From NCBI GenBank assembly GCA_043815245.1, contig JBDRJD010000014.1:14986-78985 (forward strand): 64,000 bases of DNA, written 5' to 3'. Every line of letters starts with the position of its first letter. Within the stretch, counting starts at the first letter, position 1. The position numbers were made by a program, and so were the translations under genes. The notes under the pieces are model-generated. The model did not search any database and had not been told where the DNA came from. It saw only the letters and a program-made list of their open reading frames with translations. Shown here in pieces: positions 19,921 through 62,322 of the stretch. Source of the stretch: an archaeon (lineage in GTDB: Archaea > Nanobdellota > Nanobdellia > Pacearchaeales > GW2011-AR1).

Positions 19921-19921
19921 A

Positions 19922-44637: not shown

Positions 44638-45411
44638 ATGAGAGTTAGCATTATAATTCCAGCATATAATGAAGAGGAAGCCATAGGCAGGATCCTAGAA
44701 GAATATTGTAGCTATCTAAGAAAGCAAAGAGCGGGTTTCGAGGTCTTAGTGGTAATCAATAACACAAATGATGGAACGGAAAGAATAATCAAGGAATACC
44801 AAAAAAAATACCCTGAGATTAGATATTTAAACCTAAGAGAAGGTGGCAAGGGTTTTGCAATAATTGAGGGTTTTAAGGACGCTCTAAAAAGAAAGAACAA
44901 CGACCTAATTGGGTTTGTAGATGCAGATCTTTCAACATCTGCAAAGGAATATTACAAATTAATACGGCAATTAGGATCGTATGAAGGAATAATTGCTAGT
45001 AGGTGGTTAAAGGGGGCAAAACAAAATTACAGTTTTACTAGGAAGGTTACAAGTAGGGGTTTCAATTTTATAGTAAGGAGTTTGTTTTTGTTTCCCTATC
45101 GGGACACACAATGTGGCGCAAAAGTTTTCAAGAGGCACGCAATTGAAAGCATAGCAGAAGAAATCAAAATTACAAGATGGGCTTTTGATGTGGAATTGCT
45201 GTATAGAATAAGGAAAAAAAATTATAGGGTGAAGGAGATCCCAACATGCTGGGAGGAAAAATTAAGAAAGTCTAAATTAGATTTGAGAATAGTGCCATTG
45301 CAAATGTTTTCAGCAATGGTACGATTAAGACTGTTAAACTCCCCATTTAAATTTGTTGTGAGATTTTATGATAAAATGCCAGAGTCATTAAAGATTCACC
45401 ATAGAAGATGA
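44638..45411 (+). CDS. GT2 glycosyltransferase (dolichyl-phosphate hexose synthase-like)
   Basis: Has SIIIPAYNEEEAI...DADLS (a DxD motif) and a C-terminal amphipathic region. Confidence 0.6.
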   Translation: MRVSIIIPAYNEEEAIGRILEEYCSYLRKQRAGFEVLVVINNTNDGTERIIKEYQKKYPEIRYLNLREGGKGFAIIEGFKDALKRKNNDLIGFVDADLSTSAKEYYKLIRQLGSYEGIIASRWLKGAKQNYSFTRKVTSRGFNFIVRSLFLFPYRDTQCGAKVFKRHAIESIAEEIKITRWAFDVELLYRIRKKNYRVKEIPTCWEEKLRKSKLDLRIVPLQMFSAMVRLRLLNSPFKFVVRFYDKMPESLKIHHRR

Positions 45412-46328: not shown

Positions 46329-47479
46329 AAATTTGGTTAGTTTATGACTATCTGAGTGAGGTGGGAGGGGTGGAAAGAGTAATGGCTACTCACGCACGAT
46401 GGTTCCAAGGGCAAGGACATGAAGTAAGTTTAATATTTAGTTATGTGGATGAAAAAACTAGAGAATATAGTTTTTTAAATGGGCTAGATATAAAGGAGAT
46501 GTCATCTTTTAAAATCAAAAGCGAGCCAATAAAATTATTTTCTTCGCTATTGGGTTTTAATAACTTTAAGAAACATAAAGTAGACTTTGTTATCTGTTAC
46601 TCCTTCCCTTCATTGTTTAGCACGAGGGGTATGGATTGTAAGAAAGGATTCTATTATCTTCCAATGGAGTTTGTTTATTTTCCGCTGAAGAAAAAAATAG
46701 AATGGGCCAATGACATAAAAAGGAAGCTGGCGGTTATAGGAAGTTTTTTTCTTTCTCCGGTTTTAAAAAGATGGGATAAAAAATTAATAGAGAATAAGCT
46801 GGTAATAGCCAATAGTGAGTTTACTAAAAATGAGATTAGTCAGAGGTATGGGGTGGAATCATTTGTGTCCTACCCCCCATTAAATGACGTATTTAAGCCA
46901 GAAAAAGATTACGGAAGTATTTTGGAGAAATATGGAATAAAGAAAGATTTTATACTGACGGCCGGCAGGATAATTCCTGATAAAAAAACAGATTGGTTAA
47001 TTGAAGTTTTTTCAAAAATAAAGGGAGAAATGGATTTTGTGATAGCAGGAGAGATAAGTGGAGAACACAAAGAAGAGCTTTTGAGGTTAGGTGAAAAACT
47101 GAACCTAAAAGGTAGGATTAGGATACTCGGATTAGTAAACCAAGAAGAATTAGTAAAACTTTACACAGCGGCGAAGGTATTTGTTTTTGCTTCACCAAAA
47201 GAAGCATTTGGATTAGTTCCAATTGAAGCAATGGCGTGTGGTACTCCAGTGGTAGCTTGGGACGATAAGGCTGGTCCGAATGAGTATGTGTTAAATAAAA
47301 TTAATGGATATTTAGCCAAACCCTATTCAACAATAGACTTTAAAGAAAAAGTTGAAAATGTTCTAAGGTCGGACTTTAAGAAGAAAAATAAAGTGAAGAT
47401 AATCAATTCAATAAAAAAATTTTTAGAAAAGTCTCAAGCAGATTTATTTTTAAGGAAAGTGGAGAATTATATTCAGTAG
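46304..47479 (+). CDS. GT4 (GT-B) glycosyltransferase
   Basis: Has the C-terminal EAFGLVPIEAMACGTPVVAWD (E-x7-E-like) retaining GT-B signature. Confidence 0.6.
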   Translation: MEVTYEKMKIWLVYDYLSEVGGVERVMATHARWFQGQGHEVSLIFSYVDEKTREYSFLNGLDIKEMSSFKIKSEPIKLFSSLLGFNNFKKHKVDFVICYSFPSLFSTRGMDCKKGFYYLPMEFVYFPLKKKIEWANDIKRKLAVIGSFFLSPVLKRWDKKLIENKLVIANSEFTKNEISQRYGVESFVSYPPLNDVFKPEKDYGSILEKYGIKKDFILTAGRIIPDKKTDWLIEVFSKIKGEMDFVIAGEISGEHKEELLRLGEKLNLKGRIRILGLVNQEELVKLYTAAKVFVFASPKEAFGLVPIEAMACGTPVVAWDDKAGPNEYVLNKINGYLAKPYSTIDFKEKVENVLRSDFKKKNKVKIINSIKKFLEKSQADLFLRKVENYIQ

Positions 47480-48969: not shown

Positions 48970-50049
48970 TTATGTTTTAGAATATAAGAGATAGAGGATC
49001 TTTTTACTCGCCTTTCCGTCACCAAATGGGTTTTCCCAATTCTTTTGCCTGGAAATCATTAATTTAGTGCAATCTAAAATTTTCAGAGGGTCATAGCCGG
49101 CCAAAAGATTACCCCCAGCATCAATAGTTTCTGGACGCTCAGTATTTTCCCTAAGAGTTACGCAAGGAATTTTCAGAATGCAAGTTTCTTCTTGAATGCC
49201 TCCTGAATCTGTTAATACAAGTCTTGAATTTGTTAATAACTGCAAAAAATCAAGGTAGCCAAGAGGTTCAATTAGTTTTATGTGCTCTGAAACTTTAAGG
49301 CCAAATTCAGAGACCATTTTCTTTGTACGCGGATGGATGGGATAAATCAAAGGTAATTTAAACTCTTCGTATACAAGACTTAATCCTTGTAGGATTTTTT
49401 TAAGTCTTTCTTTATTATCCACATTTTCTTGCCTATGCATGGTGACTAAAAAATATTTATTTTTTTGTAGGTCGAGCTCAGAGAGAATGTTTGACTTTCT
49501 TTGAGATATCTCTAGATTTTGATGTAATGCATCAACAATTGTGTTTCCAGTCACAAATATCTTATCCCGGGGTATGCTCTCCCGGAGTAGTATCTGTTTT
49601 GCATTTTCAGTTGGAGCAAATAAATAATCTGAAATGTGATCAGTTACGATTCTATTAGTTTCTTCTGGCATGCTCCGATCATAGCTTCTTAAGCCCGCTT
49701 CAATATGTCCTACTTGAATCCCGAGTTTGCTTGCAGCAAGTGCTCCTGCAAGAACGGTATTTGTATCCCCTTCTACTAAAACAACCGCGGGATTCTGAGA
49801 CTTAAGAACTTTCTCAATTTCTATAAGCATCTTGCCAGTTTGTTCTCCATGGGGGGCTGACCCAATATTGAGATTGAATGTTGCGGGTGGTAAGTCCAGT
49901 TCCTCAAAAAATATTTTATCCATATTTTCAGAGTAGTGTTGATTGGTATGGATAATTAGGTATTCTTTTTCTAAAGAAGAAAGTTCTCGGATAAGGGGAC
50001 TAATCTTGATAATTTCGGGACGTGTGCCAAGGATTATAGCTATTTTCAC
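48970..50049 (-). CDS. wecB: UDP-N-acetylglucosamine 2-epimerase (non-hydrolysing, WecB-like)
   Basis: Begins MKIAIILGTRPEIIKISPLI, with HIEAGLRS and a DSGGIQEE-type C-terminus. Confidence 0.7.
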   Translation of the reverse strand: MKIAIILGTRPEIIKISPLIRELSSLEKEYLIIHTNQHYSENMDKIFFEELDLPPATFNLNIGSAPHGEQTGKMLIEIEKVLKSQNPAVVLVEGDTNTVLAGALAASKLGIQVGHIEAGLRSYDRSMPEETNRIVTDHISDYLFAPTENAKQILLRESIPRDKIFVTGNTIVDALHQNLEISQRKSNILSELDLQKNKYFLVTMHRQENVDNKERLKKILQGLSLVYEEFKLPLIYPIHPRTKKMVSEFGLKVSEHIKLIEPLGYLDFLQLLTNSRLVLTDSGGIQEETCILKIPCVTLRENTERPETIDAGGNLLAGYDPLKILDCTKLMISRQKNWENPFGDGKASKKILYLLYSKT

Positions 50050-50050
50050 T

Positions 50051-51679
50051 TTAGTTTCTTAAAATTTCATATACAAAAACACCGTCAAATATTTGCGACA
50101 GTTTAAAAGTTAGGCTGCCATATGATTTTTCTTGTTTTATGTCTTGTTGACCTGTATTAAAGTCTATAGTAGTATCCATAAAAGGAATCTCCCATTTTTG
50201 TTGAGATTCACGCTTCATCCAATCTGGATGGTTTGGTTCCCAAAATGAGATTAATAGAAATCTAATTGCTGGGTCTTCCTCTATTTTAGGTAGTACTTCT
50301 TCGAAAGTTGTATCTTGATTGTACTGCACTCCTACAAGCTCAGCAGGGCTAACCATCTGCCTTTCAGCATAGTAGGAGAATTGAGGAGTTAAAACAATAA
50401 GAGTTTTGTCTGATGGAGAGGTCCGATCCTTAATGTAAAATGAAGCGTCCTTAACCCCGTTGAAACTACTTATTTTAGACTTGATAATCGTATCAGCATG
50501 CTGAACTTCATAGAAAGCACCATAGGCTAGCAATACAAGGATAATGACCAGAGCAATCTGTTTATTATATTTTTTAAGGTTATCATAAATAAATATGGCC
50601 CCCTTTGCAAGGCAAATTAAGGAACCGAAAAGCAGCGGGAAGAACCATCTCGGCTCACCAATGTCAGTTGGATGTCTTTGGTAAAACAAAAAGTAGGACA
50701 ACACAATGATTATTGATAAAACTGCAAATAATTCACTTTTAATCTCACTTTTACCAACCTTTCTAAAGTAATCAAGTGATAAAAAAGTATTTATTAAAAG
50801 CAAAATGAATCCAAGCCAGAATAAATAAAGTAAAATGCTAAGTGTGGAACTGGTAAATGAACTAAAATATGCAGGAAATATTTGGAAGGGGAAGAGATTA
50901 AAGGGAATTTCAGTATGTAGATAGATTCCAGCCACCTCAGTAATATTAGAGGCAAATACAAATTTCTCTAAAAGAGAGAAACTTACTATAAACACGGCTA
51001 AAGCTATCCAGTTGTACTTATCCTTTAAGAGTGAAGACCACTTACGAGTAATTAGCATATAAAAAAAGAAAAAGAAACCAAAAAGAAAATACCCTCTCCT
51101 CATAGAGTAGGATAAAACGACAAATAATACAGTTAGTGGAACTGCCCAGTTAGGATTAATCTTCCCAAATATTTTTTCTCCGCCTTCGTATCCTTGCCAG
51201 AAGACATAGATCGCTAAAAGACCGAAGAATAATCCTGGGACACCTAAATGGAATCTCATTGAGTTAAATAACACTACCCAGAAAGTGGCCATTAAAAACG
51301 AGGCAATTAGCCCCACCTTTTTATCTTTAAACATTAAAACGGCAGTTGCATAGGTGAGCCAGATAAGTAGGATGGAAGGTAGAATCTCTAATATAAATTT
51401 TATGGCAGGGTCAGAGAACCCTATCTTAAATAAAGCCGCTACAAAATAAATAAATAGAGAATTATGGGCATCGGAAACCATCCAGTAGGTAGTGTACCCT
51501 CCAAGAGCTTTAGCATAGGCCATATAGTCCCCTTCATCCCACCATATTGCCTGGTCCTTTGTGAGAAAAAAATAATAAAGCCTGATAGCTACGCCTAAGA
51601 TAAATATTCCCAAAAAAATTCTATTATAGGGATCTTTTAACCAATTTCTGACACTCTCTTTTATTTTACTAATTTCCAT
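50051..51679 (-). CDS. GT-C fold glycosyltransferase (ArnT / PMT-like, GT39/GT83)
   Basis: A 542-aa polytopic protein with an N-terminal WWDEGDY loop motif after TM1 and a soluble C-terminal domain. Confidence 0.5.
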   Translation of the reverse strand: MEISKIKESVRNWLKDPYNRIFLGIFILGVAIRLYYFFLTKDQAIWWDEGDYMAYAKALGGYTTYWMVSDAHNSLFIYFVAALFKIGFSDPAIKFILEILPSILLIWLTYATAVLMFKDKKVGLIASFLMATFWVVLFNSMRFHLGVPGLFFGLLAIYVFWQGYEGGEKIFGKINPNWAVPLTVLFVVLSYSMRRGYFLFGFFFFFYMLITRKWSSLLKDKYNWIALAVFIVSFSLLEKFVFASNITEVAGIYLHTEIPFNLFPFQIFPAYFSSFTSSTLSILLYLFWLGFILLLINTFLSLDYFRKVGKSEIKSELFAVLSIIIVLSYFLFYQRHPTDIGEPRWFFPLLFGSLICLAKGAIFIYDNLKKYNKQIALVIILVLLAYGAFYEVQHADTIIKSKISSFNGVKDASFYIKDRTSPSDKTLIVLTPQFSYYAERQMVSPAELVGVQYNQDTTFEEVLPKIEEDPAIRFLLISFWEPNHPDWMKRESQQKWEIPFMDTTIDFNTGQQDIKQEKSYGSLTFKLSQIFDGVFVYEILRN

Positions 51680-53069
51680 TTTTTATTTTTTCTATAATCT
51701 TTGATGTAGATTTGCCAGTTGTTAATGGGACAAATTTAAACTCTCCGCAATATGACTCTACAGCTCTTCGCTCTTTTTGGTCCATAAGTTCAAGATTATA
51801 ATCTGAACCTTTTACATATATGTCAGGATTTAGTTCTATTAAGTACTTTTCTACAGATGATTCTGGGAATATGAGAATGTAATCTACAAATTCTAGGGAA
51901 GAAAGTATCTCGGCTCTTTCACTTTCAGACTGTAGGGGGCGTGAAGGACCTTTTAAAGCTCTGACAGAAGAATCAGAATTAAGACCAATAATTAATAAGT
52001 CTCCTAGCTTTTTTGCGTCTTGTAAGTATCTTACATGACCTACATGCAGTAAATCAAAACAACCATTGGTCCAGACTATTTTCCTTCCTTTTCTTTTTGC
52101 ATCTTGAGCTTGCTTTTTTAGCTCTTCGAGACTAATTACTTTCTTGAATTCTGAGAGAAACTTGTTTTTTAACTCACTGGAACTTACTGAATATGTGCCT
52201 TTCTTCTCTACAGCAATTCCAGCAGCATGATTAGCAATAATTGCTGCTTCTTCTAATGGGGAACTAGTTGCAAGCGCAAGTGCAAGTGTAGCTATAACTG
52301 TGTCCCCAGCGCCAGTTACATCATAAACTTCTTTTGCAAAAGTTGGAATCTCGGTAGTTTTATCTGAAAAAAGAATCATTCCTCTCTCTCCATGAGTTAT
52401 CAAGATGTTTGAGTTAAGCTCTTGTCTTAGCTTTTCTCCGGCCTGATAAATGTCTGAGCAGCCAGCCATTTCGAGGGCTTCTCTTTCATTTGACTTTATG
52501 AGTAAAACTCCATTGTATAGATTTTTATTTTTTGGCTTTGGATCTACAATAATCTTGCTTTTAAAATTAGATATTAAGGAGATAAGCTCTGAAGATATGG
52601 CACCTTTTGCATAATCTGAAAGGATTATTATATCAGATTCTGAGGCGTATTTAATTAATTGTTGTTTTACCTGATCTGAAAAGCTTTTTTCTGCGAATAT
52701 TTCTTTATCATACCTCAGTAATTGCTGGCCCTTTCCTATAATTCTTGTTTTTTGGATTGTGTCATATCTGTTGTCTAGAAGGTGTTTTATGTTTTTCCCA
52801 TCCATTAGCGTTTTCAGAATTTCGGATTCAGAGTCATTTCCACAAAAAGAAACAATAGTTGCTGATCCACCCAATGAAGCAATGTTGGAGGCAACGTTTC
52901 CGGCCCCTCCAATCTCGTGAAATTCTTTTTTTATATGAACGATTGGAACTGGCGCTTCTGGATTTATTCTTGTAACATCTCCTTCAAAATACTTGTCAAG
53001 CATAATGTCTCCTATGACTAGTACTCTTTTTTCTTTAAACTGATTAACGACCTCACTAAGCGCTTTCAT
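51669..53069 (-). CDS. hldE: Bifunctional D-glycero-beta-D-manno-heptose-7-phosphate kinase / heptose-1-phosphate adenylyltransferase (HldE/RfaE)
   Basis: Has an N-terminal PfkB ribokinase-like domain (VLVIGDIMLDKY...GAGDT) and a C-terminal cytidylyltransferase-like domain (WTNGCFDLLHVGHVRYL). Confidence 0.75.
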   Translation of the reverse strand: MKALSEVVNQFKEKRVLVIGDIMLDKYFEGDVTRINPEAPVPIVHIKKEFHEIGGAGNVASNIASLGGSATIVSFCGNDSESEILKTLMDGKNIKHLLDNRYDTIQKTRIIGKGQQLLRYDKEIFAEKSFSDQVKQQLIKYASESDIIILSDYAKGAISSELISLISNFKSKIIVDPKPKNKNLYNGVLLIKSNEREALEMAGCSDIYQAGEKLRQELNSNILITHGERGMILFSDKTTEIPTFAKEVYDVTGAGDTVIATLALALATSSPLEEAAIIANHAAGIAVEKKGTYSVSSSELKNKFLSEFKKVISLEELKKQAQDAKRKGRKIVWTNGCFDLLHVGHVRYLQDAKKLGDLLIIGLNSDSSVRALKGPSRPLQSESERAEILSSLEFVDYILIFPESSVEKYLIELNPDIYVKGSDYNLELMDQKERRAVESYCGEFKFVPLTTGKSTSKIIEKIKNGN

Positions 53070-53583
53070 TTTCTTGAAGTATTACCTTAACAGACTCATA
53101 TAAATCTTTTGTTTTTTGAATAGATAGTTTTTCGGTGTAGCGGGATTCGATTAGTACCGCCTTGCAACCTAACTTTTCGGCTGGTTTTATGTCTGTGAGT
53201 TTATCTCCAACAATCCAACATTTCTCGGGGGAGAGGCTAAATTTTTTTATTGAATCTAAAAATAATTTAGTTGAGGGTTTCCTACAATCACAGTTTTTAT
53301 CTGGATCATGCGGACAGTACAGAATATCATCGAATTCTATATTTTGTTTTTTGAAAACTTGGACCATATTCTCTGTTATTTTTAGGTAGTCCTGCTCTGA
53401 GTAGTACCCAAGGCCTATACCTGACTGATTTGTGATAATGATAAGTCTATAACCGGCTTTTTTAATTTTTTTCAGAGCCTCAAAAACTCTAGGAAGAATT
53501 TTAAAATCTTCAGTTTTATGGACATAGCCTCTATCTTCGTTAATCACACCGTCACGGTCTAAAAATACAGCTTTATTTTCCAT
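53056..53583 (-). CDS. gmhB: D-glycero-D-manno-heptose 1,7-bisphosphate phosphatase (GmhB, HAD-IIIA)
   Basis: Has VFLDRDGVINED and a CxC...C zinc site (CPHDPDKNCDCRKP). Confidence 0.7.
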   Translation of the reverse strand: MENKAVFLDRDGVINEDRGYVHKTEDFKILPRVFEALKKIKKAGYRLIIITNQSGIGLGYYSEQDYLKITENMVQVFKKQNIEFDDILYCPHDPDKNCDCRKPSTKLFLDSIKKFSLSPEKCWIVGDKLTDIKPAEKLGCKAVLIESRYTEKLSIQKTKDLYESVKVILQENESA

Positions 53584-53597: not shown

Positions 53598-54170
53598 TCA
53601 ATTAGCAACAAACTCATCTTCTATTAATTTAGCTAGAATATGAAGAATCAAAATATGAACTTCTTGAATCCTTGCAGTGTTTTGAACAGGAACAATTAAG
53701 TCTACTTCCCCTAAACCCTTCATTTTTCCACCGTCTCTTCCTAACAAGTTGATGACTTGCATGTTCCTTTCTCTTGCCTTTTCTATTGTTCTTAGTATAT
53801 TACCTGAATTACCAGAGGTACTAAGTCCAATAAGGATGTCTCCGGGGTTGCCAAGTGCTTCAACTTGCCTTGCAAAAACCACCTCATAGCCATAATCATT
53901 TGACAGGGCTGTAAGGTTGGAAGTGTCTACAGTCAAAGAAATGCAGGGAAGTCCTTTTCGCTCTGCTTCAAATCTTCCAACCAGTTCAGCAGTAAAGTGT
54001 TGAGCTTGTGCGGCGCTGCCACCATTACCACAGATAAGTAATTTATTCCCCTTTTTAATTGCTTCAATGATCATGTGGGATGCCTTTTCAATCAAGGGGA
54101 TAGAATCATAGATGGATTTTTGAGCTCCCAGGCTATCATTAATTAAACTTCTTATAATCTCTTGAGACAT
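53598..54170 (-). CDS. gmhA: Phosphoheptose (sedoheptulose-7-phosphate) isomerase GmhA (SIS domain)
   Basis: Has ICGNGGSAAQAQHFTAELVGRFEAERKGLPCISLT...STSGNS. Confidence 0.75.
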   Translation of the reverse strand: MSQEIIRSLINDSLGAQKSIYDSIPLIEKASHMIIEAIKKGNKLLICGNGGSAAQAQHFTAELVGRFEAERKGLPCISLTVDTSNLTALSNDYGYEVVFARQVEALGNPGDILIGLSTSGNSGNILRTIEKARERNMQVINLLGRDGGKMKGLGEVDLIVPVQNTARIQEVHILILHILAKLIEDEFVAN

Positions 54171-54183: not shown

Positions 54184-55284
54184 TTAGAGGTTATTTAAAA
54201 TTTCTTGTGCTGAAATGCTACCTGCTAATTCTTCTGAATATTTCATAGAAAAAAAGTATTTTTCTAATAAGGGGGAAACAAGTTTCTTAGCAATTCCATA
54301 ATCTTCAATTTCCCAGGGGGGAGTTGAATAAAACAAGGCCACTGTTGGCTTTTTCAATAGGAGGGATAAATGTAGGGCTAGGGAATCTGTGGTGACAACT
54401 TTTTCGCATAAGTTGATTACTGCTGCAAATTCTCCAACTGTATTATCTGGATTATTTGAAGTAACTACTATCCCTGTAGATTTAAGCTCATTAATTAACT
54501 CGGGGATTTTGCCTCTTTCTTCTGGACCTCCTAAAAGTAAAACTTTATAGTTTTTGTTTAGCCCATTGATTAGTTCTTTAAGTTTCTCATTTGAAATGGC
54601 CTTAGAAGGCCATCTTTCCCCTGCTGAGAAATTTATTCCAATTAGTTTATCGGAGTCTGAGAGATTATTCATTTTCCTGAAATTATTAGCATACTGCTTG
54701 TCCTTGGTAGTCGCATGGAATACCATTTCTTCCCCATTGTATTCCAAATGACAGGCTTGAAAGATTAGCTGTTGGTATGTCTTTCTGTTAGACAGCTTAA
54801 CGTTGTGTAAAAAGGCAGTTTCAAGGTACTCTTCACTCCCTACATTAAAACAGGAAGTAGCCGCATTGTCAAAGTAATATCCATACTTTTCCTCAGCTTG
54901 AACAATATTTGCTAGAAGTGTCGCTGGAGTGGTTATTTCTAGTGAGAAAAGGATATCAAATTTTTCTTGTTGAATTCTTAGGATGTTTTCAGGATTGTAT
55001 GTCAGGAGTTTATCAATATGGGGGTTGTTTTCAAGTAGTTCTTTAGATTCTAGCATTGTAAACCAATAAATTAAGGCTTCATCACCGTATTTCTTTTTTA
55101 GGGCTTCTAGAATTGGGGTGGTTCTAAGAACGTCTCCCATAGCTCCTAGTTTAATAATGAGTATTTTTTTGGAGTGTGGAGAAGAGAATTTGCATTCTTC
55201 ACAGGACTTATAGCCTTCGCTAGTTAAGGTATCGCATGCATACTTCTCATTAAAAAACCTACATCTCGAGTTCCACTTAGTCAT
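54184..55284 (-). CDS. GT9 heptosyltransferase with N-terminal Cys-rich extension
   Basis: Has ILIIKLGAMGDVLRTTPILEAL, typical of the ADP-heptose:LPS heptosyltransferase family. About 40 N-terminal residues carry four Cys (CRFF...C...CEEC). Confidence 0.6.
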   Translation of the reverse strand: MTKWNSRCRFFNEKYACDTLTSEGYKSCEECKFSSPHSKKILIIKLGAMGDVLRTTPILEALKKKYGDEALIYWFTMLESKELLENNPHIDKLLTYNPENILRIQQEKFDILFSLEITTPATLLANIVQAEEKYGYYFDNAATSCFNVGSEEYLETAFLHNVKLSNRKTYQQLIFQACHLEYNGEEMVFHATTKDKQYANNFRKMNNLSDSDKLIGINFSAGERWPSKAISNEKLKELINGLNKNYKVLLLGGPEERGKIPELINELKSTGIVVTSNNPDNTVGEFAAVINLCEKVVTTDSLALHLSLLLKKPTVALFYSTPPWEIEDYGIAKKLVSPLLEKYFFSMKYSEELAGSISAQEILNNL

Positions 55285-55354
55285 GGGGATACTATATTTG
55301 GAGTGTTTAAAAATTTATGGAAAAGCTTAAAATAAGCTTAGATATAGGAGATAC

Positions 55355-55759
55355 ATGAAAAAAATATACATTGCGGGAAAATTATGTTCAGAAGAGGAAA
55401 GAGCCCTACTTGAGGGGGTGGATAAGTTCTGTAAGGCAGAGGGATTTGACACCTTTTTACCTCACAGGGATGTAGGGGTGATAGCGTTTAAAGAAGAGAT
55501 AAAAAGAGCGTTTAAAGAAGATGTAAAAGCTTTAGATGAATGTGATTTTGTACTTGCAGTATTAAACGGGAAACCTGGAAGCGGAACAGTATGGGAAATA
55601 GGTTATGCCTACTCAATCAAAAAGCCGATTATAGGATTAAAAACAGATAAAAAAGTTGAAGATTCAATACCGGAACTAAGTGCGATGGTTTTAGGCAGTG
55701 TTAAAATTTTACAAAGCTTTGAAGAGTTAAAAGAAGAGCTGTTCAATCTAAAGGGCTAG
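55355..55759 (+). CDS. Nucleoside 2-deoxyribosyltransferase-like protein
   Basis: Has IYIAGKL...FLPHRD...GTVWEIGYAYSIKKPIIGL, which fits the NDT fold motif. Confidence 0.45.
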   Translation: MKKIYIAGKLCSEEERALLEGVDKFCKAEGFDTFLPHRDVGVIAFKEEIKRAFKEDVKALDECDFVLAVLNGKPGSGTVWEIGYAYSIKKPIIGLKTDKKVEDSIPELSAMVLGSVKILQSFEELKEELFNLKG

Positions 55760-56651
55760 TTGATTTTGTTTTTTCTATACGCCATCCATCTTGATAGCCT
55801 TTTTTCCGGATTTTTAGATCATAAAAAGCAGTTAGATAAATGCAGAGTCTAGCTAAAAAAAGCAGGCATGTCCAATAAAACTCTTTTATGCTTCTGGGGT
55901 AGGATAAAGCAAAAAAAGTACCTTCTTTTATCTCATTAAAAAAAGACTTTGTTCTAGGCATATTTTTGGCAATTTTATTAAGATTTTCATGGGCTTTAAT
56001 ATTCCTAATTTTTTGAACCTTCCACTCTTTCCAATTATCAGGAGAAACAACATAAACTTTCGCCTGGGGAACATACTTTATTTTGTAGCCTTTTTCCCAA
56101 AATAAGTGAGGGATAATGCTATCTTCTGAAGTTTCTAAAGGAAACCCCTGCAATGCCCCATTTCTTATTGCAAACAAATAACCAGAACACTCAAAAAAAG
56201 CTCTTTTTTTAGAGATCTTCTCTCTTACTCTATGGATACCGTCAAACAATAAGTGGCTCCAAAAACCAAGAGCACTATTTTTTTTGTTTAAAGAAACAGG
56301 TCGGCCAGTTATGCAACCAATTTTTTTATCTTTAAATGCCTCGAAAATTGAAGCTACTGAATTTTCAGATACATAAACGTCTCCATCTGTGAGAATAATT
56401 AGATCAGATGTATCTTTAGAGTATATTTGTTCAAATAGAACATTTAGAGCATAACTTTTTCCTTCACCAGGATCCAAAAAAAACTCAACTTTCTTGTTTT
56501 TTATATTTTTCTTAATAAACTTTTCAGTTTCTGGAAAAGGGTCTACTACAATTATTTTAAAGGGTTGGTTGATCTTTTGGGATAAGAAGGAATTAATCGA
56601 CTTAAGAGTGGATTTCGGTTCCCCATATGCGGTTATGATTATGTGGATCAT
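55743..56651 (-). CDS. GT2 glycosyltransferase
   Basis: Begins MIHIIITAYGEPKSTLKSI, with ILTDGDVY (a DxD-like motif). Confidence 0.5.
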   Translation of the reverse strand: MIHIIITAYGEPKSTLKSINSFLSQKINQPFKIIVVDPFPETEKFIKKNIKNKKVEFFLDPGEGKSYALNVLFEQIYSKDTSDLIILTDGDVYVSENSVASIFEAFKDKKIGCITGRPVSLNKKNSALGFWSHLLFDGIHRVREKISKKRAFFECSGYLFAIRNGALQGFPLETSEDSIIPHLFWEKGYKIKYVPQAKVYVVSPDNWKEWKVQKIRNIKAHENLNKIAKNMPRTKSFFNEIKEGTFFALSYPRSIKEFYWTCLLFLARLCIYLTAFYDLKIRKKGYQDGWRIEKTKSTSPLD

Positions 56652-56707
56652 TTGTAAGACACCTACGGTTTCTTAACAATCAACTTCCCTTAAATATGTT
56701 TTGGGAA

Positions 56708-56911
56708 CTAAGGGGTATTAGCGTACTCTGTAACTAGCCGGATTATTACTTTTTCTTCTCCTGTTTTTTCGTTTTTTGCAGATACCCGGCATTTAGCTTT
56801 TCCTTGTTTAAGTCCTTTTTCTGAGAATTCTATTTGATTTACTATCAAAGTATCTCCGAATAGTATAATTTTATCTCCTGTTTTTATCTCTTTAAATTGT
56901 TTTTTATTCAT
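56708..56911 (-). CDS. Hypothetical small protein
   Basis: A 67-aa ORF with no recognisable motif. Confidence 0.25.
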   Translation of the reverse strand: MNKKQFKEIKTGDKIILFGDTLIVNQIEFSEKGLKQGKAKCRVSAKNEKTGEEKVIIRLVTEYANTP

Positions 56912-56961
56912 GCATTGCTGAACTTAGGAATATATATAAAGTTTTTTATATAGAAAGGTAG

Positions 56962-57654
56962 ATGAAGGAAGCAATTATTCTTGTTTCAGGTGGACTTGAC
57001 AGTTATGTTACTGCGTGGTATGCTAAAAAGGTAGGCAAAAGAAAAGTTAAGCTCTTATTTTTTGATTATGGGCAGAAGGGAATAGAAGAAGAGCTGTTTT
57101 GCACTCAAAAGCTAGCAGGAGAGTTAAAGGCTAGATTAAAGATAGTTGACATAAAATGGTTGGGAGAAATCAGCACTTCTCTGATAAATAAAAACAAGAA
57201 AACAGGAAAAACAGAGATAATTAAGTGGTATGTTCCGTGTAGGAACGCGGTATTTTTGACTGCTGCACTTGCATATGCTGAGTCAGAATTTCTGTCAAAA
57301 AACAAGAAGAGTGATATCTACCTAGGGGTAAAGTATGAAGGGGAAATAAGTTTTAATGACACTAAAGAGGCTTTTATAAGAAAAGTAAATGAATTAAGCA
57401 AGGTGGCTACACAAAAAGGAAGTTACAAGATAGTGACCCCCTTTATAAAAAAGGATAAAGAAGAAATTATAAATCTGGCAAAGAAAATGGGCCTTGATTT
57501 GGAGCAAACTTATAGTTGCTACAGGAGTAATGAGTTTGCGAGGGTTAACAATAAGAAAATTCCAATTCATTGTGGGGACTGTGCTGGTTGTAAGGCAAGA
57601 AAGAAAGGATTCAGGTTCTCAGAAATAAAAGATCCGAGCATATATGTAAAATGA
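56962..57654 (+). CDS. QueC/ExsB-family PP-loop ATP pyrophosphatase (QueC or WbpG-like glycan amidotransferase)
   Basis: Has an N-terminal ILVSGGLDSYV PP-loop and a C-terminal zinc site (CYRS...HCGDCAGCKARKKGF). Confidence 0.55.
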   Translation: MKEAIILVSGGLDSYVTAWYAKKVGKRKVKLLFFDYGQKGIEEELFCTQKLAGELKARLKIVDIKWLGEISTSLINKNKKTGKTEIIKWYVPCRNAVFLTAALAYAESEFLSKNKKSDIYLGVKYEGEISFNDTKEAFIRKVNELSKVATQKGSYKIVTPFIKKDKEEIINLAKKMGLDLEQTYSCYRSNEFARVNNKKIPIHCGDCAGCKARKKGFRFSEIKDPSIYVK

Positions 57655-58148
57655 ATGAAAAAATAGTTATTGTAAATAAAAAGGATGAAGTTATAGGTTA
57701 CAAAGACAGGGAGCTGGCTGAAAAAGATATCTACAGGGTTTCGGCATTATGGATTAAAAATTCTAAAAACGAGTTTTTATTAGCCAGAAGAGCTTATACA
57801 AAAAGCCATAGTCCAGGAAAATGGGGGCCAGCTGTTGCAGGAACTGTTGAAAAGGGGGAAACTTATAAAAAGAATATGATTAAAGAAGTTAAAGAAGAAC
57901 TTGGATTAGAAAGTTTAAATCTAGTAAAAGGTCCAAAGTTATATCATGAAAAAGAGCATAGGTATTTTGTGCAGTGGTTTTTATTAGTAATTGATAGAGA
58001 AATTTCCAAGTTTAGATTTGATAAAAAAGAGGTGGCTGAAATAAAGTGGTTTTCTAAAAAAGAATTTTTAAATCAAATAAATAGTAACCCGGAAGAGTTT
58101 ATCCCAAGTATTGAGGGATACTCCCATTTGTTTCAAGATGAAATTTGA
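57651..58148 (+). CDS. Nudix hydrolase
   Basis: Has the Nudix box GTVEKGETYKKNMIKEVKEELGL. Confidence 0.6.
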   Translation: MNEKIVIVNKKDEVIGYKDRELAEKDIYRVSALWIKNSKNEFLLARRAYTKSHSPGKWGPAVAGTVEKGETYKKNMIKEVKEELGLESLNLVKGPKLYHEKEHRYFVQWFLLVIDREISKFRFDKKEVAEIKWFSKKEFLNQINSNPEEFIPSIEGYSHLFQDEI

Positions 58149-58983
58149 CTATAAAAAGTACAATGAGGAAAAGTACGAGCAGGATTTTTGGACGATTAAT
58201 AGGTCAAAATATAAGTGGTTTAGCAACTATGTGAGACTGAAGATATTTAAAAAGTGGTGTTTAAGTGTAAAAAATAAAGGGGCATTTCTTGATGTTGGAG
58301 GAGGTGTAGGAAACTGGGCATTTCATTTTTTGGATTATTTTGAAAAAGTGATTGTGCTCGATATTTCAAAGAAAGCTCTGGAAAAAATTCCTGAAAAAGA
58401 GATAATAAAAAAGCAGGGGAGTGCTGATAAGATTCCTTTAAAGTCCAAGACAGTGGACTGCATTCTTTTAGCAGATGTATTGGAACATATACATCCTTCT
58501 GATTTGAATAAAGTTATGAAAGAGCTAAAAAGAGTTTTAAAAGATAATGGGAGGATAGTGATTCAAACTTCACTCTATGGTTATGGGATAGGGTTGGTTT
58601 TTAAGCGTGTTTTCAAAAAAATGAACGGTAGGTTGATGAAGTCTGAGATGAAGGAGGGGCATTTAAACAGGCTGAAATTTAATGAGATTAAAAGCCTTGC
58701 AAAAAAGAATGGGTTAATAATTGAAGACTATCTTTTTTACAGTATAATTTTTCAGCAACTAACTGACTTTATCAAAGACTTAACAGCAAAAGCCATGAGC
58801 AAGGAGAGTAAGCATATAAGAAAGGGTCAGGAATTAAAAGATAGGTTGAAAAAAGTTGAAAAACCAAGTAAGGTATTTAGAATGATATTTGGAACTTTCT
58901 CAAGAATATCTTACTTAGATATCATACTATTTGGGAAAATTTTGCCAGGACAGGGAATCTTCTTAAAACTAAGAAAGAATTAG
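58111..58983 (+). CDS. Class I SAM-dependent methyltransferase
   Basis: Has FLDVGGGVGNW (motif I) and ADVLEHI. The start may be the internal Met at 58138. Confidence 0.6.
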   Translation: MRDTPICFKMKFDYKKYNEEKYEQDFWTINRSKYKWFSNYVRLKIFKKWCLSVKNKGAFLDVGGGVGNWAFHFLDYFEKVIVLDISKKALEKIPEKEIIKKQGSADKIPLKSKTVDCILLADVLEHIHPSDLNKVMKELKRVLKDNGRIVIQTSLYGYGIGLVFKRVFKKMNGRLMKSEMKEGHLNRLKFNEIKSLAKKNGLIIEDYLFYSIIFQQLTDFIKDLTAKAMSKESKHIRKGQELKDRLKKVEKPSKVFRMIFGTFSRISYLDIILFGKILPGQGIFLKLRKN

Positions 58984-60096
58984 TTTCTCTATTTTGCCGA
59001 TTAGAATATCCCATCTAAACTCTTCAGCTTTTATTCTCGCTTGTTTTTGTATTTCTTTTATTCTTCGTAAGTTTTTTTTAGCTAAAATAAATAAAATCAC
59101 TTCAGATAGATTTTTTTCATCTCCGGTTTTAAACAAAAAACCGTCTTTCTTATCAGAGATTATCTCCTTTCCTGCTTTATTATCTGAAGAGATGACTATT
59201 TTACCGACAGCCATTGCTTCCACTAGGGCTTGGGGCATTGCCTCAGAAATAGATGGTAAAACAAAAATGTCAGTATTCCTCAAGGCATCAACACGCTCCC
59301 GTAGGGAGTATACTGGGGGGAAGAACCTTAGATTCCTGATTTTTAATTTGGAGGCTAAATTTTTAAGGTTACTAGTGCAAGGCTGTTCTTGGGGCCCAGT
59401 TATTTTAAGCTTTAGTTGGGGATACTCGGTTGAAACCAATTTAAAGGATTTGATAAGTGTTTCAAGATTTTTTATGTTTGCTATTCTTCCAAAAAATAAA
59501 ATTGAGTCCCCATTAAATTGCGAAATTTTTGGTTTAAAAAATTCTTTTGGGATGCCATTTGGAACATAACTTATTTTTTCTTTCTTTGCTCCGAGAGCCA
59601 AGAGAAAGGGGGCCTCCCACTTAGTAATTGTGATAATCCTGTCAAACTCATTTAGTATTCTCCTAGCAATAAATTTATCATAAATTGAAACTGCCACTTT
59701 AGAAAAAAATGAACGTGTTGAGTTCCCTTCAATAAATGGGGCGTGCGTCACAAGAAAAACTTTGGCATTTATTTTTTTCGCTATTTTTAGTGCTTTAGTA
59801 GTATGCAGGTGCCTGTAACTGTGGGCAATGATGATATCCGGCCTTAACTTAATTGCTTCTGCAGTAAAGTCCCAGGACATAAAACTTTCCCCCCCTAATT
59901 TTTTAGTTGGAAATCGCTTTATTTTAACTCTTCCTAGAGTATCTTCAGGTAAAGCAAGCTCGCCAGAACCTTTTGTAATATCTGAGGAAAAAATATAAAC
60001 CTCATATTTTTTAGATAAAAGCTCTGCTTCTTGTTTGACTCTTTGCCAAACACCGCAAACTCCTGCTGAATAGTTGGTTAGTTCTAAAATTCTCAT
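58969..60096 (-). CDS. GT4 (GT-B) glycosyltransferase
   Basis: Has the C-terminal SEAMPQALVEAMAVGKIVISSD motif. Confidence 0.6.
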   Translation of the reverse strand: MRILELTNYSAGVCGVWQRVKQEAELLSKKYEVYIFSSDITKGSGELALPEDTLGRVKIKRFPTKKLGGESFMSWDFTAEAIKLRPDIIIAHSYRHLHTTKALKIAKKINAKVFLVTHAPFIEGNSTRSFFSKVAVSIYDKFIARRILNEFDRIITITKWEAPFLLALGAKKEKISYVPNGIPKEFFKPKISQFNGDSILFFGRIANIKNLETLIKSFKLVSTEYPQLKLKITGPQEQPCTSNLKNLASKLKIRNLRFFPPVYSLRERVDALRNTDIFVLPSISEAMPQALVEAMAVGKIVISSDNKAGKEIISDKKDGFLFKTGDEKNLSEVILFILAKKNLRRIKEIQKQARIKAEEFRWDILIGKIEKLILS

Positions 60097-61161
60097 TTAT
60101 GATTCTCCTTTTAATAATGCATCTATCGCTTTTTTAACTTTTTCTGTAGGTATTTTTCTGACTTTTTTGTTAAAGATAAGGGTATAGTTATGGGGGTGCT
60201 GCCAGGGATGCCATGTTTCAGGATAAGTGCAAAATAATGCAACTGTTTTAGTTTTAGATGCGGCTGCGAAATGGATAGCTGAAGTATCTATGCTGACTAG
60301 AATTTTAGACTTTGAAATAAGGGAAGCATATTCATTAATTTTTAACTTCCCGGTGAAGTCATAAACTTTTTCAGTTTTGTCTAAATTACTAATTATATTT
60401 TTAGCAATAAGTGAATCTTCGCTTGAACCGCCGATTATTACTGGGAGGGCATGTTTTTTGTTAAGATGATTTACAATTTCCGCAAACTTTTTCTCGTCCC
60501 ATAAATAATTTTTCCCTGCCAAGGAACGCTTGCCCGGATGAATTATTGCAAAATTCCTAATTTTGTTTTTCCTGAGGAGCGAGTCAACTTTCAGCCCATC
60601 TTTTTTAGAAGGAAAAGTCTCCATTAAAATATCTTTGGAGGTAACCTTCAAGTACTTAGCAGGAAAAAGATTCTCTTTAACTTTGTGAACTTCACGTAAA
60701 GAAGGAAAGATACACCTAGTTAAAAAGAAGGAGTTAATATTAGCATAAGCGGTCTGAGCGTAACCAATTCTGTAAGTAATCTTAGCTTTGAGAAGTGTTA
60801 TAAACATTTTAAGTGAGCAGGGGTAGATCGTAATTGCTAATTGATATTTTTGATGAATCTTCTTTTCAAAAGCGGGATAGTTCTCAAAAACTAGTATTTT
60901 GTTAATATGAGGATTATTTTGAAGGATAGTCTCCATTCCGGACCTTACAGCGACATCGATTTTATAACTTTTGGAGAGGCACTTGATTAGGGGGGTTGTC
61001 GCGAGTAAGTCACCTATAAAACCAAGATTAACAATTAGAATAGACTTGATTGGACTTTTAGAAATTTTTTTGAACTTAAATGGAGAGAATATAAGCCATA
61101 CTAAGTAGTTAATTAATTGGAAAGTCTTTCTTCTTATTTTTTTAAGTGTCTCGGGGGACAT
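60097..61161 (-). CDS. GT9 heptosyltransferase (second copy)
   Basis: Has ILIVNLGFIGDLLATTPLIKCL and IDTSAIHFAAASKTKTVALF. Confidence 0.6.
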   Translation of the reverse strand: MSPETLKKIRRKTFQLINYLVWLIFSPFKFKKISKSPIKSILIVNLGFIGDLLATTPLIKCLSKSYKIDVAVRSGMETILQNNPHINKILVFENYPAFEKKIHQKYQLAITIYPCSLKMFITLLKAKITYRIGYAQTAYANINSFFLTRCIFPSLREVHKVKENLFPAKYLKVTSKDILMETFPSKKDGLKVDSLLRKNKIRNFAIIHPGKRSLAGKNYLWDEKKFAEIVNHLNKKHALPVIIGGSSEDSLIAKNIISNLDKTEKVYDFTGKLKINEYASLISKSKILVSIDTSAIHFAAASKTKTVALFCTYPETWHPWQHPHNYTLIFNKKVRKIPTEKVKKAIDALLKGES

Positions 61162-61215: not shown

Positions 61216-62322
61216 ATGGTAGAAAGATTCTATAATCTAGATCCGAGAAAAATAAAGATAGTTAACTTGATTCCTATTGGGCGATCCAGCTCTATATTTT
61301 TACAAGGCTTATTGGATTGGCATCCAGAAATAATCACAATTTTAGGAAATTTCTATCCTGAGAAAAGTGACTTGCAGAGTAGACGGTTTGAGGTTATTGC
61401 CAAGAAGATATATGGGAAGATAAATGCGATGACTAAACATTATAATACTACCTATGATTTGGGAAGAAACTTTCCTGAGGGGAAATTTGCCGGTTACTTG
61501 AAAGAGTATACAGATGTCTTTGGAATGAGTATCGGGTCTTTGTTTATTGGGGCACACTATGCATATGCTAGGCATTATAAAAGGGATATTTCCAAGATAA
61601 AGTATATTCTTGCCCATGCGCATGGGGCGACTTTATTTCACCAAATTGTAAAAGACTTTCCCAAGCAGAAACTGATTTTTACAATAAGAGATCCTAGAGC
61701 TAATTACCTTTCATATAAAAAAATTGGAATATTGGTTCACGGAACACTATATCAATATGAAAATTATCTTTTGTATAGAAAACTAAAAAAAATAGGATAT
61801 CCAATAATTATAATTAGGCATGAGGATATGCATACAAAATATGAAGAGGTTAAAAAGGGACTAATTGAATTTTTAGGTATTAAAAAGTCCAAGAGTTTAG
61901 ATTCCTGTAGTTTTTTTAATCTGGCTTATGATGGTAGTGAGAGTAAAATAAGCTCAAGTCAAAATCTTTCTGATACGCGGCCTAATAAAAAGTTCGTGAA
62001 TGAGAAGTGGAAATCAGATTTGTCTACCTCAGAATTAAACCTAATTCAGTTTATTTTTCGTAAAATGATGGAGGAATTTAAGTATCGGAAGTATTATTCA
62101 GGGGGGGAAATAGTAATAAAATTTCTTAATACTGATGTTAGGAGCTTATCGAGAAGCAATTTAGAATCTAAAAAAGGAATAAAAAAATTTCTGCTCACTT
62201 TTGCAAGGTTTATTTATCAAATTCCCATACTTGGAATAATATTAATTGATATTAGTTTATTGCTGTACTACTTTTTTATGATCATTCTAGCAATTCTAAA
62301 AGTTATTGTGAAAAAAGTTTAG
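61216..62322 (+). CDS. Sulfotransferase-family protein with C-terminal TM helix
   Basis: Has a 5'-PSB-like IPIGRSSSIF and a 3'-PB-like FTIRDPRANYLSYKK. The C-terminus is hydrophobic (ILGIILIDISLLLYYFFMIILAIL). Confidence 0.45.
   Translation: MVERFYNLDPRKIKIVNLIPIGRSSSIFLQGLLDWHPEIITILGNFYPEKSDLQSRRFEVIAKKIYGKINAMTKHYNTTYDLGRNFPEGKFAGYLKEYTDVFGMSIGSLFIGAHYAYARHYKRDISKIKYILAHAHGATLFHQIVKDFPKQKLIFTIRDPRANYLSYKKIGILVHGTLYQYENYLLYRKLKKIGYPIIIIRHEDMHTKYEEVKKGLIEFLGIKKSKSLDSCSFFNLAYDGSESKISSSQNLSDTRPNKKFVNEKWKSDLSTSELNLIQFIFRKMMEEFKYRKYYSGGEIVIKFLNTDVRSLSRSNLESKKGIKKFLLTFARFIYQIPILGIILIDISLLLYYFFMIILAILKVIVKKV

Follow-up and report, generated by a model that had tools for sequence, protein, structure and literature searches.

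The described enzymes closest to those reported here are the lipopolysaccharide (LPS) heptosyltransferases WaaC, WaaF and WaaQ and an uncharacterised Veillonella protein (PDB 3tov), all members of glycosyltransferase (GT) family 9 (GT9). This family also includes transferases of sugars other than heptose. We analysed a 64-kb stretch of DNA (contig JBDRJD010000014.1; hereafter the window) from a Pacearchaeota-like archaeon that encodes two GT9 proteins, here called GT9-A and GT9-B. A sequence-only reading of the window had placed two GT9 open reading frames (ORFs) at 54184-55284 (-) and 60097-61161 (-), and both were present at exactly these positions and matched the Pfam family PF01075. We consider it probable, if well short of certain, that GT9-A and GT9-B transfer heptose in a surface-glycan island of a DPANN archaeon, with a lipid-linked acceptor. 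The GT9 fold, the intact catalytic motifs, the operon structure, and the conservation and fusions of the gene module around GT9-A are demonstrated below.

Bacterial autotransporter heptosyltransferases (BAHTs; TibC and AAH) form dodecameric rings and heptosylate Ser/Thr of autotransporters directly. They have a GT9-related core, use ADP-heptose and carry four conserved Cys residues. The donor of TibC is ADP-D,D-heptose, its four Cys (Cys339/342/358/370) bind metal in an iron finger that forms an insertion in the C-lobe, and the protein has a beta-barrel of 97 residues at its N-terminus and an N-lobe that is atypical in having four strands (PMC4358343). In archaea, heptose has been documented chemically in the N-glycan of Thermoplasma acidophilum, and the review passage that reports it names no transferase (PMC11407970). 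Functional archaeal ADP-heptose enzymes have also been published, with the use of the sugar left open in a commentary on Tang et al. 2024 (PMC11461863). In the literature searched, we found no earlier description of archaeal GT9 heptosyltransferases or DPANN heptose, of a Cys-rich GT9, of the DPANN GT9-A gene module, or of DPANN aIF5A.

Fold and catalytic residues of GT9-A

54184..55284, (-) strand: GT9-A, 366 aa; soluble GT-B enzyme of GT9, probable ADP-heptose-dependent heptosyltransferase, first gene of a seven-gene operon

GT9-A scored 56.3 bits against the Pfam hidden Markov model (HMM) PF01075 (Glyco_transf_9; gathering score 22), and its transmembrane (TM) profile contained no TM segment. 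We built an AlphaFold2 (AF2) model on a family alignment of 72 sequences with 46-72% identity. The model had a predicted local distance difference test (pLDDT) of 95.1 and a predicted template modelling score (pTM) of 0.91, and its N-lobe contained six strands with flanking helices. Foldseek ranked 3tov first among PDB structures (E 8e-19) and also matched WaaF (1psw, E 1e-14) and WaaC (2gt1/2h1h, E ~3e-13), while a PDB sequence search matched 3tov and WaaF. The GT9 fold, on which the sequence-only reading depended, was borne out by HMM for both proteins and by AF2 and Foldseek for GT9-A. Against the NCBIfam equivalog models for LPS heptosyltransferases the best score of GT9-A was 64 bits (TIGR02201, cut-off 170).

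The residues invariant in the 72 aligned sequences included D51 in the GxxGD loop, and D300 and H305 in the motif DSLALH, the region that aligned with ‘TNDSGLMH’ of WaaF. We take the Asp of the G-x-x-G-D loop to be the catalytic residue corresponding to WaaC Asp13. GT9-A therefore shares with WaaC, WaaF, WaaQ and 3tov not only the Pfam family and the GT-B fold but also the catalytic Asp of the GxxGD loop and the D-[ST]-x3-H motif of the C-domain. It differs near the W-P motif, where WaaF and 3tov have a Lys before W-P and GT9-A has E223-R224 instead; R224 and K228 were both invariant in the alignment.

More than 2000 relatives of GT9-A were retrieved from a set of 5.8 billion proteins, and the best 120 of them spanned 99-100% of the query. 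The nearest carried the names of DPANN groups (Pacearchaeota, Woesearchaeota or Nanoarchaeia). We also scanned species representatives with the GT9-A family alignment (185,579 genomes, 458 relatives); L- and P-numbers such as L014 and P0045 label the related loci and proteins below. GT9-A and GT9-B were only 27% identical, which speaks against a recent duplication and indicates that they are either ancient paralogues or members of separate lineages.

Gene neighbourhood of GT9-A

The operon downstream of GT9-A and the genes on its other side were as follows.

53598..54170, (-) strand: GmhA, sedoheptulose-7-phosphate isomerase; TIGR00441 229 bits (cut-off 209); 13 bp downstream of GT9-A
53056..53583, (-) strand: GmhB; NF006506 178 bits (at the cut-off); TIGR00213 157 bits (cut-off 149.6)
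51669..53069, (-) strand: HldE, heptose-7-phosphate kinase/heptose-1-phosphate adenylyltransferase; NF008454 444 bits; rfaE_dom_II 183.3 bits (cut-off 181.5)
50051..51679, (-) strand: PMT_2-like GT-C membrane glycosyltransferase, 542 aa, ~9-11 TM segments; start overlaps the HldE end by 11 bp
48970..50049, (-) strand: WecB, UDP-GlcNAc 2-epimerase; TIGR00236 444 bits
47473..48933, (-) strand: B12-binding radical S-adenosylmethionine (SAM) enzyme, probable C-methyltransferase; Pfam B12-binding and Radical_SAM; last gene of the operon, recurring in related loci
55355..55759, (+) strand: nucleoside 2-deoxyribosyltransferase-like (NDT-like) protein; PF05014 67 bits; divergent from GT9-A across a 70-bp gap
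55743..56651, (-) strand: GT2 partner, 302 aa, one C-terminal TM segment; Pfam Glyco_tranf_2_3/Glycos_transf_2
56708..56911, (-) strand: stand-alone domain-I (KOW/SH3-like) protein of the archaeal/eukaryotic initiation factor 5A (a/eIF5A)-elongation factor P (EF-P) type, 67 aa; hypusine-loop-like motif GLKQGKAK
56962..57654, (+) strand: QueC-like PP-loop ATPase; PF06508 161 bits; TIGR00364 132 bits, below the cut-off of 150
57651..58148, (+) strand: NUDIX hydrolase (YfcD/IDI-like); PF00293 65 bits

The seven genes of the operon were in the order GT9-A, GmhA, GmhB, HldE, PMT_2-like GT-C, WecB and B12-binding radical SAM, with gaps of -14 to +36 bp, and lay within a glycan island of ~25 kb. The PMT_2-like protein of the window had no Pfam match itself, and was homologous to ORFs labelled PMT_2 or PMT in related loci. 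PDB sequence searches with this protein and with the partner GT2 returned nothing, and those with the NDT-like protein matched NDTs and a CMP N-glycosidase. B12-binding radical SAM enzymes were abundant in DPANN glycan islands (L001, L004, L005 and L086-L090), with up to 4-5 per 20 kb, which points to sugars that are heavily C-methylated or otherwise modified by radical chemistry.

The genes around GT9-A formed a conserved module. In ~24 distinct DPANN loci the order was QueC(-), small ORF(+), GT2(+), NDT-like(-), GT9-A(+) and PMT-like(+), with NUDIX, HldE/GmhA/GmhB or B12-binding radical SAM genes as optional insertions between GT9-A and the PMT-like gene; the NDT-like, GT2 and QueC-like genes were conserved neighbours of GT9-A in ~25 loci. 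Several of these partners were also fused. NDT-like::GT9-A occurred in P0045, GT9-A::NUDIX in P0119, L018 and L086, and GT9::GT2 in L088 and L090, where the fused gene was followed by a PMT-like gene and, in L090, overlapped it. The similarity of the window NUDIX protein to the GT9-fused NUDIX domains was only 26-31 bits, and we did not assume that they are the same. The NDT-like, QueC-like and NUDIX proteins may recycle the ADP/AMP by-product or may belong to 7-deazapurine metabolism. The module region of L089 also contained a Vut_1/YhhQ-type transporter.

Sugar donor

With GmhA, GmhB and HldE encoded alongside it, GT9-A resembles WaaC, WaaF and WaaQ also in its probable donor, ADP-heptose. 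GmhB reached the beta-anomer-specific model at its cut-off. The nucleotide-specificity motif of HldE was LTTGKSTS, with Lys and not Arg at position 5; the Arg of the ‘STTR5’ motif is linked to CDP/UDP-heptose synthesis in the commentary on Tang et al. 2024 (PMC11461863). We found no HldD epimerase in the window, so the form predicted there is ADP-D,D-heptose.

Three observations tied heptose synthesis to GT9 enzymes. First, heptose genes filled precisely the slot that separates GT9-A from the PMT-like gene in eight lineages (the window, L005/6, L008, L013, L014, L021, L086 and L089), and the loci with heptose genes in that slot fell in both of the GT9-A sub-clades described below, with and without an N-terminal four-Cys (Cys4) module. 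Second, L014 encoded an uninterrupted ORF of 655 aa, without Ns, at 9998-11965 (+) that fused GT9-A(Cys4), rfaE_dom_II and NUDIX. The middle domain scored 159 bits as a heptose-1-phosphate adenylyltransferase vs 39 bits as a glycerol-3-phosphate cytidylyltransferase. Third, in L056 (2949-12063, (+) strand), from an unrelated archaeal metagenome-assembled genome (MAG), genes for AglB, AglH, HldD, HldE, GmhB, rfaE_dom_II, GT9 and a PseC-like aminotransferase were co-directional and mostly overlapping. The HldD there, an ADP-L,D-heptose epimerase, scored 278 bits (cut-off 274.6). The recurrence in eight lineages, the L014 fusion and the L056 gene string argue strongly that heptose is the sugar transferred by GT9-A, with ADP-heptose as its probable donor. 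In L014 we also noted, 3' of the triple fusion, genes for a HAD phosphatase, a heptose-7-phosphate kinase domain, a second adenylyltransferase and a GSU2086-family protein.

Several observations weigh against heptose transfer by these GT9 enzymes in a surface glycan. About 2/3 of the module-bearing loci had no heptose gene within 10 kb, and three large GT9-A contigs (647, 448 and 344 kb) were not among the best 120 HldE relatives. When the contigs of those 120 were matched by length to GT9-A contigs, as a way to find HldE encoded away from GT9-A, only the MAG contig of the window and its closest relative coincided. Some GT9-A orthologues may therefore use another donor or distant heptose genes. 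L087 had GT2, HldE, GmhB and PMT_2 but no GT9, and its heptose could feed a route through GT2 and GT-C. The fused GT9s of L088 and L090 belonged to a second, Cys4-less archaeal lineage and were not strict GT9-A orthologues. The conserved linkage with the eIF5A-domain-I, QueC-like and NDT-like genes is not explained by simple glycan assembly. Finally, both GT9 proteins scored far below the cut-off of every LPS heptosyltransferase equivalog model.

Some of the same evidence fits an alternative in which the heptose is not for GT9-A. The GT2 would make dolichyl-phosphate-heptose, the PMT_2-like GT-C would transfer it outside, and GT9-A would use another nucleotide sugar. L087 has the GT2, heptose and PMT_2 genes without a GT9, most GT9-A orthologues have no heptose genes beside them, translation of HldE and of the PMT-like gene is coupled in the window, and E223-R224 replaces the Lys found ahead of W-P in both 3tov and WaaF. 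On the other side, L014 joins GT9-A covalently to a heptose-1-phosphate adenylyltransferase domain, which is hard to explain otherwise than by heptose transfer, L056 joins HldD, HldE and GmhB to a GT9 without an intervening GT2 of this type, and GT9-A is itself the first gene of the heptose operon. We regard a heptose supply that bypasses GT9-A as unlikely.

Acceptor and N-glycosylation context

The following genes of the window bear on the acceptor of GT9-A.

39660..42380, (+) strand: AglB/STT3 oligosaccharyltransferase, 906 aa; Pfam STT3; TIGR04154; WWDYG at residue 610
42382..43401, (+) strand: AglH/WecA/MraY-type polyprenyl-phosphate sugar-1-phosphate transferase; PF00953 110 bits
43398..44624, (+) strand: Wzx/AglR-type oligosaccharide flippase; Polysacc_synt/Polysacc_synt_3
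44638..47479, (+) strand: two GT2 and one GT4 glycosyltransferases
13272..16457, (-) strand: candidate N-glycosylated surface protein, 1061 aa; TIGR04213 PGF-pre-PGF; signal-like N-terminus and C-terminal anchor

GT9-A differs from the LPS heptosyltransferases in its host and in its gene context, which was of the AglB/dolichol type and not of the lpx/kdt type. As is well established, archaea have no lipid A. Because the host is archaeal, lipid A carrying 3-deoxy-D-manno-octulosonic acid (Kdo) cannot be the acceptor, and no lpx or kdt genes were found in the window. The sequence-only reading had argued on the same grounds for an acceptor other than Kdo-lipid A, and this part of it stands. It had also put forward a dolichol-linked oligosaccharide, which is plausible, as the context fits: an AglB with WWDYG, an AglH-like initiating transferase and a flippase occurred together in one locus, as in archaeal N-glycosylation clusters, and a sequon-rich surface protein was encoded in the window. 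The AglB of the window scored 111 bits against the archaeo_STT3 subfamily model, below the cut-off of 450. AglH, flippase or AglB genes adjoined the GT9-A module in L005/6, L011, L017 and L020 as well as in the window.

The surface protein contained 52 N-x-S/T sequons, or 4.9 per 100 aa, a density >20 times the 0.22 calculated for a set of 12 window proteins that are mostly cytoplasmic. It is probably the major N-glycosylated envelope protein and a candidate substrate of AglB. The locus thus resembles the Agl pathways of Haloferax, Methanococcus and Sulfolobus in its AglB with WWDYG, AglH-type transferase, flippase and soluble GT-B/GT-A enzymes, as well as in its methyl and sulfo modification genes and its sequon-rich surface protein. 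It differs in that, in the literature searched, no Agl pathway was reported to include a GT9 or an ADP-heptose operon, and in that the heptose branch of the window is also tied to a PMT_2-type GT-C. Gene context points, with moderate strength, to a lipid-linked glycan intermediate of the dolichyl-phosphate type as the most likely acceptor, and hints weakly at either AglB or the PMT_2-like route for the final destination of the heptose glycan.

The heptose might alternatively be retained in the membrane, if GT2 and GT9-A built a heptose-bearing, archaeol-based glycolipid or lipoglycan analogous to the inner core of LPS. Characterised GT9 enzymes act on lipid-anchored sugars, the partner GT2 weakly matched lipid glycosyltransferases (Glyco_transf_21, HpnI), and LPG_synthase_TM and phosphodiesterase-type genes recurred in related loci. 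Yet it is AglB, AglH and flippase genes that repeatedly adjoin the module, beside a sequon-rich surface protein in the window, and a GT-C of the PMT_2 type points to onward transfer, to another acceptor. A membrane-retained glycolipid therefore seems distinctly unlikely to us as the end product.

The stand-alone eIF5A-like protein

The 67-aa protein of the module had the predicted fold of a translation factor domain. In 19/19 distinct DPANN loci that contained both a QueC-like gene and the GT2, the small ORF was found between the two, next to the 5' end of the GT2. A member of the family scored 32.2 bits against IF5A-like_N (cut-off 27.1), and the window protein scored 20 bits against EFP_N, below the cut-off of 23. 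The family matched Pyrobaculum aIF5A (PDB 1bkb, E 2e-4), with IGKHGKRK aligned against TGKHGSAK at the hypusine loop, and the loop of the family was conserved as G-K-[HQ]-G-[KR]-x-K-x-R. The AF2 model (pLDDT 89) was a six-stranded barrel, and the best 50 Foldseek matches in the PDB were all domain I of a/eIF5A or EF-P (TMq 0.80-0.89), including EF-P chains of EarP complexes (5wxk and 6j7m). An exhaustive search returned relatives of only 62-78 aa, with no fusions and no canonical aIF5A among them. The C-terminal OB domain is absent, so the protein is not a full aIF5A.

EarP, a GT-B enzyme of family GT104, rhamnosylates an Arg on domain I of EF-P. The DPANN module resembles the EarP/EF-P pair in that the gene for an inverting, soluble GT-B enzyme lies beside that for an EF-P/eIF5A domain-I protein with a conserved loop. 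It differs in that GT9-A has neither sequence similarity nor top-ranked fold similarity to EarP, the small protein lacks the other EF-P/IF5A domains, and the linkage is not universal for sets of GT9, GT2 and PMT genes. By analogy with EarP, GT9-A and/or the GT2 could glycosylate the loop of the small protein, with the QueC-like, NDT-like and NUDIX proteins processing nucleotides. The presence of the small ORF upstream of GT2 in every module locus with QueC and GT2, its conserved loop, the solubility of GT9-A, the fusions of GT9-A to nucleotide-handling NDT-like and NUDIX domains, and the precedent of a GT-B enzyme acting on exactly this domain all favour this. The distribution of the genes does not: L087, L088 and L090 had GT9 and/or GT2, heptose genes and PMT-like genes without the small protein or QueC, and in L023, where the GT2 was relocated, the small ORF remained beside QueC. 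In addition, the PMT-like GT-C, the membrane-anchored GT2 and the AglB and flippase genes indicate the cell surface, and no EarP structure was among the best 50 fold matches of GT9-A. We hold loop glycosylation of this kind to be highly improbable. There is likewise only a slim chance that the DPANN module is a protein-modification system that heptosylates a hypusine-like loop, or that the small protein is an obligatory carrier or adaptor for the heptose unit.

The N-terminal Cys4 module

55171..55284, (-) strand: Cys4 module of GT9-A, residues 1-38, with C8, C17, C28 and C31; probable Zn/Fe-binding knuckle

The sequence-only reading had pointed to a four-Cys N-terminal extension on GT9-A, and this extension is real. 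Cys 8, 17, 28 and 31 (MTKWNSRCRFFNEKYACDTLTSEGYKSCEECKF) precede the first Rossmann strand (KKILIIKLGAMGD) with the spacing C-x8-C-x10-C-x2-C. All four were invariant in 72/72 aligned relatives, far beyond chance, and were visible in more than 100 matches. The motif was W-N-x2-C-[RK]-x-F-x4-[YW]-A-C-[DE]-x-[LM]-x5-Y-x2-C-x2-C-x-[FY], and the segment alone matched no Pfam family. In the AF2 model residues 1-38 had pLDDT 81-91 and almost no regular secondary structure, and a confident yet structure-poor segment of this sort is typical of a small metal-stabilised knuckle. Given four invariant Cys and a confident model for a segment so poor in secondary structure, the module probably binds Zn or Fe as a structural knuckle, and we grade the case for metal binding as moderate.

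After the DPANN sequences, the next-best matches to GT9-A in the genome scan were bacterial. They came from cultured Hymenobacter spp. and from MAGs assigned to Akkermansia, Endomicrobia, Omnitrophota, Nitrospinota, Chloroflexota, Ignavibacteria and Planctomycetales. Most of these bacterial relatives carried the Cys4 module, with the consensus D-C-[RK]-x-F-x-G-[DE]-x-P-C...C-x2-C-x2-[YF]-x-P and a third spacer of 10-11 or 6 residues. The module could thereby be accessible in tractable organisms such as Hymenobacter (loci L065, L071, L072 and L079); an Akkermansia-assigned MAG provided L064. The neighbourhood of the GT9 gene in Hymenobacter perfusus (adenylosuccinate lyase, DUF7079 and GT4) gave no functional clue. 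The extension had been called untypical of LPS enzymes. That holds for WaaC, WaaF and 3tov, all of which lack the module, and fails for GT9 more broadly, since the module is widespread in a bacterial GT9 subfamily. Its presence in many bacterial relatives also ruled out an archaeal innovation.

One DPANN sub-branch (L015-L027, L086 and L089) had GT9-A proteins that begin at MKIxIIKLGALGD, without Cys4. In a neighbour-joining tree of the catalytic domain, which is crude and without bootstrap support, the DPANN sequences from loci with the gene module formed one clade that split into Cys4 and Cys4-less sub-clades, with the mostly Cys4-bearing bacterial group as its sister. On the simplest reading, Cys4 would date back to the ancestor of this GT9 subfamily of bacteria and archaea, with a secondary loss in one DPANN sub-branch. 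Because the Cys4-less sub-branch retains the same gene neighbourhood, the module is unlikely to define the acceptor, and a structural, stabilising or interface role is more likely.

The four Cys had further suggested an analogy with the iron finger of BAHTs. GT9-A and TibC are both GT9-related, TibC uses the form of ADP-heptose predicted for the window, and the TibC fold (4rap) was detectably similar to GT9-A (E 4.5e-7, TMq 0.50-0.53). This match ranked only 18th, behind 3tov, WaaF, WaaC and PnsB1, which puts GT9-A nearer to WaaF and WaaC than to TibC, and the PDB sequence search did not match TibC. The Cys cluster of TibC is a C-lobe insertion, whereas that of GT9-A lies at the N-terminus (residues 8-31) with other spacing, and C293 is the sole invariant Cys of the GT9-A C-domain. 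The AF2 model of GT9-A contained no TibC-type beta-barrel, as its 38-residue extension had almost no strands, and its N-lobe was of the normal six-stranded kind and not four-stranded. No autotransporter-like substrate was encoded nearby, and the gene context of the sub-branch that lost Cys4 was unchanged. With its catalytic apparatus intact and all the TibC-type features that we checked absent, GT9-A is by its model a classical GT9 and not a BAHT; homology to BAHTs was rejected on the features of the TibC paper and on the fold search. We give next to no credence to direct heptosylation of protein Ser/Thr by GT9-A in the cytoplasm with Cys4 as an ‘iron finger’ for oligomerisation and substrate recognition.

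GT9-B and its surroundings

60097..61161, (-) strand: GT9-B, RfaQ/heptosyltransferase-III-like, 354 aa; hydrophobic 40-aa N-terminal extension; in the variable part of the glycan island
58969..60096, (-) strand: GT4 glycosyltransferase, directly downstream of GT9-B with a 0-bp gap
58111..58983, (+) strand: class I SAM methyltransferase
61216..62322, (+) strand: sulfotransferase-like protein with a C-terminal TM anchor; weak Pfam Sulfotransfer_1/3

GT9-B was assigned to GT9 by HMM (PF01075, 67.8 bits; gathering score 22) and by its identity to GT9-A, and it retained the motifs GFIGD and DTSAIH. Its best scores against the LPS equivalogs were 98.6 bits for TIGR02201 (cut-off 170) and 99.5 bits for NF007742 (cut-off 467). 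The family was sparse, with ~11 relatives of >30% identity, one of them named Nanoarchaeota. These relatives shared the extension motif [DS]-Y-x-[ILM]-W-[FL]-[LI]-[FL]-x-P-[FS]-K-F. The extension is hydrophobic but not long enough to register as a TM segment, and so it probably anchors GT9-B at the membrane interface.

The relatives of GT9-B sat amid methyltransferases and GT4s, near the GT9-A module in L089 or the GT9::GT2 fusion in L090, and in the window the GT9-B region was flanked by the methyltransferase and the membrane-anchored sulfotransferase-like protein. GT9-B has the look of a transferase for the variable, outer part of the glycan. Going only by its family and by the nearness of the heptose operon, the sugar that it transfers is probably heptose or a related one. 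At the island's edge, 62303-63769 (-) encoded an unusual 488-aa fusion of a sugar-1-phosphate nucleotidyltransferase and a class-I glutamine amidotransferase/peptidase C26, for which the best NCBIfam match was gamma-glutamyl-CDP-amidate hydrolase, far below the cut-off.

Other genes in the window

The window had a G+C content of ~35%. Between 21 and 34 kb a ribosomal-protein operon encoded archaeal-type uS5, uL6, S4e, uS3, uL4, uL3 and SecY, several of which scored below their equivalog cut-offs, as expected for a divergent lineage. By its gene content, the window is archaeal and DPANN-like. Housekeeping genes, including a diphthamide-synthesis protein fragment at 57-659 (-), FtsZ at 3375-4490 (-) and a Tyw1-like wyosine radical SAM enzyme at 8144-9118 (+), confirm a cellular archaeal chromosome. 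The only Rfam matches in the window were two tRNA genes, Pro-TGG (1855-1928) and Ser-TGA (12825-12904).

AMP phosphorylase and ribose-1,5-bisphosphate isomerase belong to an archaeal nucleotide-salvage (AMP) pathway that is common in DPANN. An AMP phosphorylase-like protein was encoded at 37969-39435 (+), with 512 bits just under the equivalog cut-off of 535, and an IF-2B-family protein at 19859-20731 (+) is possibly a ribose-1,5-bisphosphate isomerase.

Proposed role and significance

In the reading that we favour, GT9-A and GT9-B would be cytoplasmic, inverting GT-B enzymes of GT9 that serve a cell-surface glycan island in a Pacearchaeota-like host. GmhA, GmhB and HldE would supply ADP-heptose to GT9-A. 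The GT2 and GT9-A would work one after the other on a lipid-linked intermediate that is bound to the membrane on its cytoplasmic side. This is the most economical model, with GT9-A soluble, the GT2 held by one TM segment at its C-terminus and the PMT-like protein polytopic. The glycan would then cross the membrane and be attached outside, either by AglB in N-linkage, for example to the PGF-domain protein, or by the PMT_2-like GT-C. GT9-B, docking via its hydrophobic N-terminal helix, would add another heptose, or a sugar related to it, to the outer, variable part of the glycan. The Cys4 module would be an ancestral structural knuckle of the GT9 subfamily and not an acceptor determinant.

These results correct and extend what was previously read from this locus. 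The tempting link to the iron finger of BAHTs was shown to be wrong, and a striking association with a stand-alone eIF5A-domain-I protein was uncovered. The analysis also defines an undescribed N-terminal Cys4 module that is common to many bacterial GT9s. For archaea, the loci offer concrete candidates for enzymes that use ADP-heptose, as they contain GT9s coupled by operon, and once by fusion, to ADP-heptose synthesis and to AglB/dolichol machinery. The candidate enzymes are soluble and hence could be expressed and assayed. Their hosts belong to a very abundant group of uncultured archaea whose surface chemistry probably mediates attachment to hosts of their own.

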